From Candidatus Odinarchaeia archaeon (GTDB taxonomy: Archaea > Asgardarchaeota > Odinarchaeia > Odinarchaeales > Odinarchaeaceae), in the NCBI GenBank assembly GCA_029856525.1, contig JAHQXC010000027.1, forward strand, positions 1 to 15,425: a stretch of 15,425 nucleotides of DNA. The letters are read 5' to 3'. Position 1 is the stretch's first letter; every line of letters starts with the position of its first letter. The notes under the pieces are model-generated. The model made no database searches and was not told the origin of the DNA. It worked only from the letters and a program-made list of their open reading frames with translations. A program made the position numbers and the translations under genes. Of this stretch, positions 1,000 to 15,118 are shown in pieces.

Positions 1000-1668
1000 T
1001 CACTTTTTCCGTTCTTGAAGATTATCAGCTATTATTCTAACAAATTTTTTTATAATTGTTTCATCAGAGTCCACGCACTCCTCTTTCAGTAATTTAAAAA
1101 ACTCCTCTTCACAGTCTTCAATGCTTCTCTCCCCGGTAGCTATCAAGCGGCAAATCCCTCTAAGTTTTAACGTATTATCTATCCTAATCTTAGACCATCG
1201 TTTAATATAATCGTCGATAAGAGAATTAACAGTATCCCCCCCGGTTTCTTCGACACCAGCTTCTTTACGCCAAAGCGAGATCTCATATTTAGCCGTCTCC
1301 TCACCGTCTGAAGCATGTACTACATTAATTCCATTCCATATTCCATACTTACCTCTAATAGTATGAGGCTCAGCTTTCTCACTGAAAGTGTTACCGAGCA
1401 TTACTCTTATTGAAGGTATAACGTTTTCTCCTTCAATCACCATTGCTATAACAGGGCCTAGTGTAAGGTAGTCTACTAGTTTTTTAAAGAACGGCTTCTC
1501 TCTGTGAACTGAATAATGCTTCTCCGCTAAACTTTGAGAAGGCGTTACTTCTTTGAAGGCTTTTATCTTAAATGCTTTATTATCTCTAAACTCTTTTAAA
1601 ACACAGGCGCCCACGTAACGTCTCAGATACGCGTCAGGTTTTAATAAAACTAGCGTATTCTGTATCAT
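1000..1668 (-). CDS. ndk: Nucleoside diphosphate kinase with a long C-terminal extension
   Basis: TLVLLKPDA, HYSVHREKPFF, GPVIAM, TIRGKYG and NVVHASD (catalytic His). Probable start ATG 1668; GTG 1677 is the alternative. Confidence 0.93.
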   Translation of the reverse strand: MIQNTLVLLKPDAYLRRYVGACVLKEFRDNKAFKIKAFKEVTPSQSLAEKHYSVHREKPFFKKLVDYLTLGPVIAMVIEGENVIPSIRVMLGNTFSEKAEPHTIRGKYGIWNGINVVHASDGEETAKYEISLWRKEAGVEETGGDTVNSLIDDYIKRWSKIRIDNTLKLRGICRLIATGERSIEDCEEEFFKLLKEECVDSDETIIKKFVRIIADNLQERKK

Positions 1669-1737
1669 ATCAACCACAGTTTTTATTAGTAATGAAATTA
1701 TTGTTTTAAATGTTATTTAAAAATCTTTTAGTAACAG

Positions 1738-11342: not shown

Positions 11343-11912
11343 TTAAACTTTTCTCAGAAACTCCCCTAATAATTTTAAAGCTTTAAACCTGTGTGAAAGC
11401 TTATTTTTCTCCTCTAAACTCATCTCCGCATACGTTCTACCATCCCCCTCTAACGGGATGAACACAGGGTCGTAACCCCACCCCTCCCCTCTGATATCTT
11501 CAGCGATAACCCCTGATGTTTCACCTATAAATATTTTAATAGGTGTTTTATCTGACTCTTTGAAGGCTATAACTGTTTTAAACACCGCTCTCCGATTATT
11601 CTCCCCGCGCAGTAGTCTTATTATCCCCTTATTCCCTAAAGTTTTAAAAACATAGGATGAAAACGGTCCCGGGAACCCGTTTAAACTATCTATAAATAGC
11701 CCTGTGTCTTCAACGAAAACAGGTTGTTTAAACTCTTTAACAATCTGGTTTAAGCTGTAAGTTGCTATATCAACTAAATCCGGTGACTGAATTTCTATTC
11801 TCTGAATATTTAAATGAGCTAATTCCACGTTATAATTTCTGAGAATTAGTTTAGCTTCTTCAATTTTATGAGGATTACCTGTTGCGAAATAGACTCTCCG
11901 CATTTCGATCAT
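11343..11912 (-). CDS. rdgB: XTP/dITP diphosphatase (HAM1/RdgB)
   Basis: FATGNPHK, EIQS, VEDTGL, GFPGPFS, GYDPVF, KNKLSHR. Confidence 0.96.
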   Translation of the reverse strand: MIEMRRVYFATGNPHKIEEAKLILRNYNVELAHLNIQRIEIQSPDLVDIATYSLNQIVKEFKQPVFVEDTGLFIDSLNGFPGPFSSYVFKTLGNKGIIRLLRGENNRRAVFKTVIAFKESDKTPIKIFIGETSGVIAEDIRGEGWGYDPVFIPLEGDGRTYAEMSLEEKNKLSHRFKALKLLGEFLRKV

Positions 11913-12541
11913 CTTCTATCTTGAATATACCTTCCCCTCTTCTCTATTAGAGTTATTCTTTTTATAACATCCTCAGCATCTTCACCCGCGGTCTCACGAT
12001 AACCTTCTAGCACCTCTCGAAAACTCGCTGAAGCGATTCGGAAATGCGTGCTCTCTAACGCTCTCTTCATCAAATGTAAATCCACGCCTTTATTTTCAAT
12101 ATCGGTTGAATGCTCGCATAAACCGAAATCTATGAAGTAAATATTTCCGGAGCTTGTTAACAACATGTTTGAAGTGGTTAAATCACCGTGTATTAAACCG
12201 TTTTTATGAAGTAAACCGATTAAAACCCCTATTCTCTTATTTAATTTTCTTCTTTCTATTTCATTTAGCTGTTCTAATATATTTTTAACTTTAACACCGT
12301 CTATGAATTCGTATATTATGCTAGTCCTCTCTAAATCTACATCATATACGATGGGTGTTGGAACCCCGGCGGCTCTAGCTTCATTCATCATTCTAGCTTC
12401 TGAAATTGTCCTGTAAGCTCTAAGCTTATAGTCTAAAATAGGATGACGGTAATTTTTCTTAATCCTCTCTTTTACGATGACATCGAAGCCGTACCATTTC
12501 GTTTTATAAAGACACGCTTCCGCGCCTTTCGCTATCAACAT
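11909..12541 (-). CDS. bud32: KEOPS kinase/ATPase Bud32
   Basis: IAKGAEA, RTISEAR, GVPTP, HGDLTTSN, IDFGL, DLHLMKRALESTH, RGRY tail. Confidence 0.97.
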   Translation of the reverse strand: MLIAKGAEACLYKTKWYGFDVIVKERIKKNYRHPILDYKLRAYRTISEARMMNEARAAGVPTPIVYDVDLERTSIIYEFIDGVKVKNILEQLNEIERRKLNKRIGVLIGLLHKNGLIHGDLTTSNMLLTSSGNIYFIDFGLCEHSTDIENKGVDLHLMKRALESTHFRIASASFREVLEGYRETAGEDAEDVIKRITLIEKRGRYIQDRR

Positions 12542-13283
12542 TTAAATCTCTCTCCAAGGTATATCCACTTCGTCAAGTCTCCATTTAGGTTTAATACGAC
12601 TCTCAGATAGTTTTATAGTTTTACCGCTCTTCATGTAAAGTATACCAGTCCACGCGATCATTAAACCGTTATCTCCAGCATACTCTTTAGGGACTACGTG
12701 AAACCTAGCGTTATGTTCCTCTGATATTATTTTAATCATTTCTTGAAGCCGCTTATTTGCGGCAACACCTCCAGTTAATAATACATCCTTCTTCTCGGTA
12801 TGGGCTAAAGCTCTCTCAGTAACCTCAGCTAGCATCGCGAAAGCTGTCTCTTGTAGACTATAACATAAATCCTCAACCTTATATTTTTTAATAATACCTG
12901 ATATTGCTGTAAGCAAACCAGAGTAGGAGAGATCCATCCCCTTCACTATATAAGGCAGCTCTATTAGTTCACCGCCTTTTTCCGCGTAAGCCTCTATCTT
13001 AGGACCTCCTGGGTGTTTAAAACCCATCAATCTAGCGAAACTGTCTAGAAGATTTCCAATCGCTAAATCTAAAGTTTCACCGAAAACCCGGTATCTGCCT
13101 GAATCATATGCTGCTACGATCGTGTTACCTCCTGAAACATATAATGTAAGAGGATCCTCTGTGTTAGTGGCTTTCCTCCCTATCTCAATATGAGCTATAC
13201 AGTGGTTCACTCCGATTAAAGGCTTTTTTAATATCATTGAAAGCGTTCGAGCCACTATTGCGCCTGTTCTCAGACAGGGCCCT
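12542..13283 (-). CDS. kae1: Kae1 tRNA t6A threonylcarbamoyltransferase, exon 2 of the predicted spliced gene
   Basis: Frame is open from GGG CCC TGT CTG AGA (GPCLRTGAIVAR) at 13282; contains NHCIAHIE, LYVSGGNT, GETLD, HPGGPKIE, GGVAAN, GDNG. Confidence 0.92.
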
Positions 13284-13315
13284 TTAAGCGCTTAATTTTT
13301 AGAAAAATTTAAGCT
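13284..13315 (-). other. Predicted 32-nt bulge-helix-bulge (BHB) intron in kae1 pre-mRNA
   Basis: CAGGGCCC-GGGU-UU^A-GCUUAA...UUAAGC-GCUU-AA^A-GGGCCCUG: 8-bp exon helix, 4-bp central helix, two 3-nt bulges, intron helix. Canonical cuts give an in-frame GPGL-GPCLR. Confidence 0.88.
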
Positions 13316-13557
13316 AAACCCGGGCCCTGAGAGAATGCTATAAAATCTAAATCTGAAAGATTGAGTTTAACACTGTTAAGCGCTTCTTTAATAGCTTTAT
13401 CAGCGTTTTCAAGGTGGTGTTGGACAGCCTCACGGGGGTGTATCCCACCTACAGCCGGAGTATATGTTTTCTGTACATTCGCTTTTATATTAAACTCTTC
13501 ATCGGTTATCCCTACACCGAATGTGTGAGCGGTGGCTTCTATCCCCATCCCTAACAA
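13316..13557 (-). CDS. kae1: Kae1 exon 1 of the predicted spliced gene (327 aa in total)
   Basis: MLGMGIEATAHTFGVGI...GGIHPREA...IAFSQGPGL; TTG start after GGGAG. Exons 242+742 nt = 984 nt = 327 aa plus stop. Confidence 0.92.
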
Positions 13558-13907
13558 TTCAGCACACTCCCTTCATATATCTTCTCAGAAAGATAGAATT
13601 ACACTGTAATATTTAATTTTTGATTAATATAAGCGACCTTGTTAAAATTTTATTTTAATAATTAAACCGGTAGGTGTAAGTAGAATTCACAGTAACCTTT
13701 TGTAATCTACTTATTAAGCTGAGCCGGAGACTCCGATACACTTGACAACAGGTCTTTTTAGATTTTCTAATAGGCTTCATCACTATGCTGTGAAAGATGC
13801 CGGCTTACATCAAGTAACTCATGGATAACATTATATATATTTAGGAGTAAATAATTGATAATAACTTAAGCTTCAAACTTAGTCTACTCAGGGAAGTAGG
13901 GGGTATT

Positions 13908-14423
13908 ATGGCATCCTATAAGTTTAAAATACCTTTAGTAGGCGATGGAGCTGTTGGGAAAACCTCCCTTATAATAAAATTCGTTGAAAACATGTTTAAA
14001 CACGAATATAAGTCTACGATCGGCGTTGACATATTCACTAAATCTGTGAAAATAGATAAAGATGATGTTTTAATAACTTTATGGGATATAGCAGGCCAGG
14101 AAAGATTTAAAATTATTAGAAAAGGTTTTTTCGAGGGTGCAGCCGGAGCTATAATAGTTTACGATGTTACTAGAAAGGAGACATTTGAAAACATTGAAAA
14201 CTGGTTGAAAGAAGTTCAAGAGTTCACAGGGCCTATACCTATGATTATATGCGGTAATAAAATAGATTTAGCCAACCAGAGGCAGGTTTCAACTAAACAG
14301 GGAAGCAGCTACGCTTCTAAACTTAATAAAACATTTATAGAGACTAGTGCTAAAACCGGTGAAAACGTTGAAAACGCGTTCATAGAATTATGCAGTGAAA
14401 TACTCTCAACACGTAAAAATTGA
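13908..14423 (+). CDS. Rab-like small GTPase 1 (Ras superfamily)
   Basis: GDGAVGKT, YKSTIGVD, WDIAGQERF, GNKID, ETSAKTG; no C-terminal Cys. Confidence 0.93.
   Translation: MASYKFKIPLVGDGAVGKTSLIIKFVENMFKHEYKSTIGVDIFTKSVKIDKDDVLITLWDIAGQERFKIIRKGFFEGAAGAIIVYDVTRKETFENIENWLKEVQEFTGPIPMIICGNKIDLANQRQVSTKQGSSYASKLNKTFIETSAKTGENVENAFIELCSEILSTRKN
14341..14374 (+). repeat. 34-nt exact direct repeat, copy 1 (G5 region of GTPase 1)
   Basis: AGACTAGTGCTAAAACCGGTGAAAACGTTGAAAA is identical to 14898-14931. Confidence 0.95.
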
Positions 14424-14440: not shown

Positions 14441-15118
14441 ATGTCAGCTGCAGGAAACACTGAAACCCATTTCGTGTTCAAGGTCCTCTTACTAGGCGAC
14501 GGAGCGGTGGGTAAAACCTCTCTTATATCTATGTTCACTAAAGGCTTCATTAAACAAGATTATAAAATGACTATAGGCGTAGATATAATGGCTAAAACAG
14601 TTAAAGTTGATGATAAAATAGCTAAATTATCTATCTGGGATTTAGCCGGTCAGCAGAGGTTTAAAGCTATAAGAAGCGCCTTCTACGGTGGTGTAGCTGG
14701 CGCGTTACTCGTATTCGATCTAACTAGAGCTTTAACCTTTAAGAATTTAGTTAACTGGCTTCAAGAGCTATACCAGTTCGGTAACCCTGAGTGTCCGACG
14801 ATATTAATAGGGAATAAATGCGATCTTGTAGAGCTTAGAGATGTTAGACAAGAGGACATAGACTGGTTTGTGTCTGAAATCGGAAGCGAGTATATTCAGA
14901 CTAGTGCTAAAACCGGTGAAAACGTTGAAAAAGCATTCATAAGTTTAACTAGAAAAATGATTGAGAAGTCAACCGGTAAAAAAATAAGAGTTGTCAAAGA
15001 TCAAAGTGAAGCTAAATATTATACTACAATCGACTCTGAAAATATTAGATCCGAGTCTAATAACGTTCACCGAGAGTCTGAAAGCAAAAATACTTTAAAT
15101 TCAAACCCTCATAGTTAA
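14441..15118 (+). CDS. Rab-like small GTPase 2 with a low-complexity C-terminal tail
   Basis: GDGAVGKT, YKMTIGVD, KLSIWDLAGQQRF, GNKCD, QTSAKTG; Ser/Asn/Glu-rich tail ending NPHS. Confidence 0.93.
   Translation: MSAAGNTETHFVFKVLLLGDGAVGKTSLISMFTKGFIKQDYKMTIGVDIMAKTVKVDDKIAKLSIWDLAGQQRFKAIRSAFYGGVAGALLVFDLTRALTFKNLVNWLQELYQFGNPECPTILIGNKCDLVELRDVRQEDIDWFVSEIGSEYIQTSAKTGENVEKAFISLTRKMIEKSTGKKIRVVKDQSEAKYYTTIDSENIRSESNNVHRESESKNTLNSNPHS
14898..14931 (+). repeat. 34-nt exact direct repeat, copy 2 (G5 region of GTPase 2)
   Basis: Identical to 14341-14374. Confidence 0.95.

Follow-up and report, generated by a model that had tools for sequence, protein, structure and literature searches.

In the literature searched, the cbf5 gene of Crenarchaeota has for two decades been the only protein gene reported to be interrupted by a bulge-helix-bulge (BHB) intron, and recent papers cite cbf5 alone. 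Work on this intron was reportedly published by Watanabe in 2002 and by Yoshinari in 2006. [quoted passage not shown] Furthermore, very intron-rich tRNA genes have been described for some Asgard classes (PMC11291895; 10.64898/2026.10.13.758758), and neither of these two publications mentions introns in mRNA.

The window analysed here is a stretch of 15,425 nt from an Odinarchaeia genome (contig JAHQXC010000027.1 of assembly GCA_029856525.1). The 32 nt at positions 13315-13284 of its minus strand very probably constitute a tRNA-type (BHB) intron in the pre-mRNA of the single-copy gene kae1, which would be spliced by EndA and RtcB. [quoted passage not shown] In contrast to cbf5, the host gene is kae1 with its role in t6A synthesis, the host belongs to the Asgard phylum, and the exon helix is formed by a coding repeat (GGNCC...GGNCC); the kae1 inserts are also shorter, with a minimum of 13-14 nt reached in family f7. 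The motif in kae1 is a strict 3-4-3 hBHBh' motif, whereas a relaxed form has been discussed for cbf5. Moreover, splicing was confirmed by cDNA for cbf5 and is predicted for kae1.

The motif, the predicted enzymes, the size range and the occurrence in intron-rich lineages are the same as in the BHB introns of archaeal tRNAs and rRNAs. Unlike these, the kae1 intron resides in an mRNA, in which the reading frame must hold and splicing would compete with coupled translation. With the HAC1/XBP1 mRNA (PMC13149111), which is spliced in the cytoplasm of eukaryotes, it shares the predicted spliceosome-independent excision of a short intron by protein enzymes, the paired stem-loop sites and the sealing by a tRNA ligase or RtcB. 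In HAC1/XBP1, however, the cut is made by IRE1 and not by the tRNA-splicing endonuclease, the sites are two 7-nt loops and not a BHB, and the splicing is regulatory.

The first-pass annotation of the window had known of no BHB intron in kae1 or in any Asgard mRNA. Our full-text literature search, with many subscription papers outside its coverage, agrees in having returned no report of a kae1 intron or an Asgard mRNA intron, and an earlier report is possible. What appears to be new is thus the gene and the phylum that harbour this pre-mRNA BHB intron, which is part of a predicted multi-gene Asgard set; the kind of intron itself is known.

Reading frames and predicted fold of kae1

Kae1/TsaD is the t6A synthase core of KEOPS. 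Its gene lies on the minus strand of the window in two pieces. Exon 1 (13316..13557) comprises 81 codons and two nucleotides of a Leu codon, with TTG 13557-13555 or ATG 13548-13546 as start candidates, and belongs to an ORF at 13309..13557. Exon 2 (12542..13283) supplies the missing third nucleotide of this Leu codon, followed by 245 codons and a stop codon at 12544-12542. The exon-1 frame, an ORF of 82 aa, is closed by a TAA at 13311-13309 inside the intron and the exon-2 frame is shut upstream by a TAA at 13294-13292, so that the intron (13284..13315) contains the stops of both exon frames, and the two open frames do not overlap. Excising the 32 nt at 13315-13284 results in a frame of 984 nt and 327 codons that reads ...FSQGPGLGPCLRTG..., with GGUUUAGGGCCC as the predicted junction of the spliced mRNA, corresponding to GGUUUAGGGCCCUGU as a read span. 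The first-pass annotation had placed the two stop codons at the same positions, which the ORF listing reproduces, and had predicted that the EndA bulge rule removes 32 nt and restores SQGPGLGPCLR in a 327-aa protein, with which our translation agrees.

Besides SQGPGLGPCLR, the spliced Kae1 of 327 aa contains ATAHTFGVG in exon 1 as well as NHCIAHIE and AGDNG in exon 2. The Pfam profile TsaD (PF00814) matches with its positions 7-63 at 13312-13482 and with its positions 64-264 at 12650-13279 (E = 2e-64), and is therefore broken exactly at positions 63/64. The membership in the Kae1/TsaD family is indicated by this full profile match in two pieces, the metal-binding motifs and the bud32 neighbour. 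The latter, a bud32-like kinase gene (ORF 11909..12541, minus strand) with Pfam matches to RIO1, Kdo and Pkinase, begins where kae1 stops, and both genes probably form an operon of the KEOPS complex.

Genes in the surroundings of kae1 encode aIF5B, aIF2-gamma, Rpo7, S15, Ham1 and two Ras-family GTPases; a homing endonuclease gene is not among them. The two small GTPase genes are arranged in tandem on the plus strand (13908-14423 and 14441-15118), divergent from kae1; they match Pfam Ras with E = 8e-58 and 3e-49 and are typical Asgard 'eukaryotic signature' genes. A nucleoside diphosphate kinase ORF of 225 aa (1000-1677, minus strand) matches the NDK domain with its residues 6-139 only, which leaves about 85 aa at the C-terminus unexplained. 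The assignment of the DNA to Asgard in the first-pass annotation is borne out by the closest named records, which are Candidatus Odinarchaeota MAGs with amino-acid identities of 93% and 88%. Identity to named MAGs of the Promethearchaeota (Asgard) was found for other members of this phylum.

Both ORFs are open, and some archaea with reduced genomes do have protein genes that are split. A split gene, whose polypeptides of 82 aa and 237 aa (from GTG 13255) assemble into Kae1, nevertheless seems very unlikely, given that the break falls within the conserved GPGLGPCLR loop and that the first start codon of the second ORF would remove GPCLRTGAIV. Such a split would furthermore leave the conserved RNA structure and the exact restoration of the frame unexplained.

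As a BHB intron, in contrast, the insert and its flanks can be drawn as a complete hBHBh' motif (13275..13329, minus strand) consisting of outer, central and inner helices and two bulges. The outer (exon) helix is formed by eight Watson-Crick pairs between 13329-13322 (CAGGGCCC) and 13282-13275 (GGGCCCUG). It is followed by the central helix between 13321-13318 (GGGU) and 13289-13286 (GCUU) with the pairs G.U, G.U, G-C and U.G, two bulges of 3 nt each at 13317-13315 (UUA) and 13285-13283 (AAA), and the inner (intron) helix of 6 bp between 13314-13309 (GCUUAA) and 13295-13290 (UUAAGC), which encloses a loop of 13 nt (13308-13296). On re-reading of the minus strand each of the coordinates and letters given for these elements in the first-pass annotation proved correct. 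The borders of the intron can shift by 1 nt (A/A) with the product unchanged. A 4-bp helix between two 3-nt bulges on opposite strands, flanked by exon-exon and intron helices, assigns the structure to the BHB class; scans of the window against Rfam and for tRNAs returned no match.

The folding energy of the 76-nt region amounts to -29 kcal/mol compared with -16.7 +/- 2.8 kcal/mol in shuffled sequences (z = -4.3), and none of 200 shuffles folded as well. The minimum free energy structure of the kae1 region consists of the outer and inner helices only, with the four central pairs open, and the calculated energies are -20.6 kcal/mol for the full BHB versus -22.0 kcal/mol with the central helix open and -23.4 kcal/mol for the minimum. 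In this genus of Odinarchaeia (f1) the central helix contains three G.U pairs and is thermodynamically marginal, with a penalty of about 1.4 kcal/mol for its formation according to the nearest-neighbour model. The fold had been proposed to work on the sense RNA only. This holds for the 4-bp central helix, but not for the overall fold, which is equal on the antisense strand (-29.3 kcal/mol).

The insert in kae1 of other Asgard genomes

When 400 genomes of the phylum were searched for a kae1 gene split at TsaD positions 63/64, the split was detected in four families: in 4/4 members of f1 (this genus), 3/3 of f2 (same order), 5/5 of f7, including one in which the contig ends within exon 1 shortly upstream of the site, and in all five members of f19 that had a match. 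It is present in every member of these families with a readable site, while kae1 is without a split at this site in about 370 other Asgard genomes. The inserts measure 32, 30, 28 and 26 nt in f1 (32 nt in the window genome), 25 nt in all three members of f2, 14, 14, 14, 13 and 14 nt in f7, and 29, 28, 29, 29 and 29 nt in f19.

All 17 inserts have two 3-nt bulges and a 4-nt central segment at the same codon, and a cut after the second bulge nucleotide would in each of them bring Leu(TTA/CTA)-Gly-Pro-Cys into frame. The central helix is completely paired in 16/17 inserts. All eight pairs of the outer helix are formed in 14/17 intron-bearing genes (10/11 in the set tabulated first), and the remaining three have one mismatch. 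In the alignment of the 17 inserts 97.9% of the pair cells are paired versus 82.2 +/- 1.8% in column shuffles, a value that none of 500 shuffles reached, and only 30-62% are paired if the 3' partners are slid by 1-3 columns. Six of the 14 pairs have changed on both sides, with 43 doubly changed cells versus 16 expected, counts which overstate the number of independent events as the 17 genomes represent only four lineages. The most informative pair is the one between the third positions of both Gly codons, at which changes are synonymous; it occurs as G-C, U-A, C-G, A-U, U.G and G.U. The alignment of kae1 over Asgard genomes, suggested as a check in the first-pass annotation, thus revealed an insert at the same site and compensatory changes in six pairs. 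Based on this comparison, the BHB structure appears to be kept by compensatory substitutions among relatives.

For comparison, 28 distinct QGPGxGPC sequences from genes without the intron were examined. The two synonymous pairs show complementarity in only 10/28 and 7/28 of them, and the outer helix is complete in 2/28, with 6-7 of 8 pairs on average. This suggests an origin of the intron in which the GGNCC...GGNCC hairpin pre-exists in intron-less genes and a short insert completes the BHB. In a tree of Kae1 exon 2 the intron label requires three changes, of which well-supported branches force only one, and the tree is compatible with a single gain as well as with several.

Translational recoding, in which the ribosome bypasses or frameshifts over the insert without any cutting of the RNA, was considered as well. 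A stop codon two codons past the take-off site followed by a hairpin gives the locus a superficial likeness to phage T4 gene 60. However, no matching take-off and landing codons yield the GPC frame, with TTA or CTA in front of the insert and AAA, TAA, TGA or AGA in front of exon 2. The open frames do not overlap, and the length of the insert varies from 13 to 32 nt. Taking furthermore into account that recoding leaves the invariant 3-4-3 geometry and the covariation of the exon-exon helix without a reason, it is highly improbable that kae1 is expressed in this way.

Several other interruptions of kae1 were encountered among the Asgard genomes. The gene of G338 (family f6, L137:2130-2160) contains a frameshift resembling a 2-nt deletion in a G/C run four codons upstream of the site, without a BHB, which is probably either an assembly error or a true frameshift. 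In G014 (family f10, L040:1350-1371) the frameshift lies near residue 205 with overlapping alignments and without an insert. These two genes, like those of G141, which contains Ns, G084, which has two full kae1 copies, and G240, in which kae1 is split over two contigs, were not regarded as intron-bearing.

The kae1 gene of the window is formally frameshifted with stop codons in both frames, and it originates from a fragmented MAG of 127 contigs. The insert might hence be regarded as junk or as an assembly or sequencing error, with kae1 being dead or located elsewhere. However, no second kae1 was detected by Pfam TsaD/Kae1 in the genome (1.32 Mb, 93% complete, 127 contigs), which makes this copy the sole one. 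Between the spliced coding sequence and those of three congeners dN/dS amounts to 0.04-0.08 over both exons (dN/dS pairs of 0.046/0.93, 0.045/1.25 and 0.091/1.19), according to which the kae1 exons appear to be under strong purifying selection. Moreover, the same read data, probably those of the source sample, were re-assembled by a different assembler into a Logan contig (9,025 nt, depth 17) that is identical to the window over 12900-13700. Absence of the 32 nt as well as an intact second copy with relaxed selection had been named beforehand as observations that would speak against the intron; the former is countered by the re-assembly, within the limits of the shared data, and neither of the latter was found. 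Inserts at the identical codon occur in 17 genomes from different assemblies, closed ones included, and the true frameshift-type breaks of G338 and G014 look different and are without a BHB. Because of the single copy, the selection, the recurrent insert and the identical re-assembly, an artefact or pseudogene is largely refuted and seems extremely unlikely. Pseudogene, bypass and split gene alike fail since none of them explains a covarying 3-4-3 geometry together with purifying selection.

Splicing enzymes and proposed mechanism

Two paralogous EndA proteins are encoded in the genome, and both of the Pfam EndA domains are present in either one. The best solved relative of the alpha subunit (188 aa, contig C56) is the catalytic subunit of the A. 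pernix heterotetramer (E = 6e-44), to which it aligns in the Tyr/His/Lys triad as well as in the N-terminal loop region. The second paralogue (187 aa, contig C61) carries an Ala at the position of the catalytic His of the M. jannaschii EndA, as expected for a structural beta subunit, and is thus considered beta-like. [quoted passage not shown]

A gene encoding RtcB was identified on contig C95 (L123, C95:1-1311, minus strand). It contains a LAGLIDADG intein after about 50 profile positions and runs off the end of the contig, and due to both the intein and the contig end its integrity is in doubt. Endonuclease and RNA ligase are accordingly represented in the genome by EndA alpha, the beta-like paralogue and an intein-bearing, contig-cut RtcB. 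The cbf5 gene of the window genome is uninterrupted. Only 19 tRNA genes were detected by Aragorn, 14 of them with an intron at the canonical site, which is consistent with a heavily intron-laden genome; many further tRNA genes probably escape detection because their introns are non-canonical or multiple.

According to the proposed mechanism, the kae1 transcript would fold such that the exon ends pair in the 8-bp helix encoded by the QGP...GPC codons, and the 4-bp helix between the two 3-nt bulges would present both splice sites. The heterotetrameric (alpha-beta)2 EndA would cut after the second nucleotide of each bulge, and RtcB would join the exons (GGU UU|A GGG) and probably circularise the intron. 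Full-length Kae1 would be produced from the spliced mRNA only, whereas ribosomes on the unspliced transcript would stop two codons into the intron. We infer that cleavage, ligation and circularisation of the intron would take place in vivo on the basis of the geometry, the restoration of frame and motif, the conservation with covariation, the selection on the exons and the enzymes encoded. The computational tests (frame, covariation, selection and enzymes) all support the assumption of the first-pass annotation that an EndA/RtcB intron is present in the kae1 pre-mRNA.

Further interrupted genes and implications

Four further protein genes with a putative BHB insert were identified in the same genome. 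In gatA an insert of 29 nt (C23:3669-3697, minus strand), whose central helix is GCGG/CCGU and whose inner stem measures 9 bp, splits the Pfam Amidase profile at positions 153/155, and its excision restores the amidase signature GSDTGGSVRQPASFCG. The insert of gcvPA (29 nt, C123:4019-4047, plus strand) forms a BHB almost without an exon-exon helix; it splits the GDC-P profile at positions 99/101, and excision restores EFLTAYTPYQAEASQG (TAYTPYQAE). A radical-SAM activase gene carries an insert of 29 nt inside its CxxxCxxC motif (C124:8175-8203, minus strand), the excision of which restores CTFRCAYCQN, and a DUF355/adenosine-kinase-like gene carries one of 32 nt (C1:17691-17722, plus strand), in which the central helix is GGGG/CCCC and the inner stem comprises 9 bp. 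Together with gatA, gcvPA, the radical-SAM gene and the DUF355 gene, kae1 is thus one of at least five protein genes in this genome that are predicted to be BHB-interrupted. The split of gcvPA is common to G001, G002 and G005 and absent in the six other Asgard families searched. It is probably also present in G003, the gcvPA gene of which shows one in-frame TAG within a contiguous profile match.

The insert of gatA emerged from a genome scan for other BHB-split genes, as had been recommended in the first-pass annotation, but the structure-first scans themselves did not rise above decoys. Structural BHB matches numbered 1319 in the genome versus 1300 in the reversed-genome control, and the hits of the de novo BHB scan with ORF fusion that 'restored' a frame equalled decoys with shifted cuts at each of the loose thresholds (115 vs 115-140, 79 vs 62-92 and 339 vs 295-344). 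Because their hits match the decoys, structure-first scans give no intron census, and a scan hit was accepted only if it also restored a known family motif.

The persistence of the intron, which has not been lost in any readable member of the four families, might point to a regulatory switch, in which the EndA site is genuine and inefficient ligation or conditional splicing tunes Kae1, and thereby t6A, to the tRNA-splicing capacity. Such a role would be in line with cbf5, kae1 and gatA being RNA- or tRNA-related genes and with the weak, possibly tunable central helix kept in genus f1. On the other hand, gcvPA, the radical-SAM gene and the DUF355 gene are not related to tRNA and fit a passive spread of introns in an intron-rich genome, and we regard a regulatory function as improbable.

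Under the preferred interpretation of the insert as a spliced BHB intron, an essential and universally conserved Asgard gene would depend on the tRNA-splicing machinery, for which the comparative support is strong. The variants of 13-14 nt would be among the smallest conceivable introns in coding sequence. Annotation pipelines would label such essential genes as pseudogenes or split ORFs, and this mis-annotation would distort completeness estimates and metabolic reconstructions of Asgard MAGs.

It furthermore seems rather likely that Odinarchaeia, and probably two further Asgard families, systematically splice protein transcripts by the tRNA endonuclease and ligase, with at least five genes concerned in a genome of 1.3 Mb and some of the introns conserved at the order level or beyond. 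The kae1 gene offers a concrete, testable case in which protein enzymes would splice an mRNA, and it comes from the lineage closest to eukaryotes. If true, prokaryotes closely related to eukaryotes would regularly rely on enzyme-catalysed pre-mRNA splicing to express their genes.
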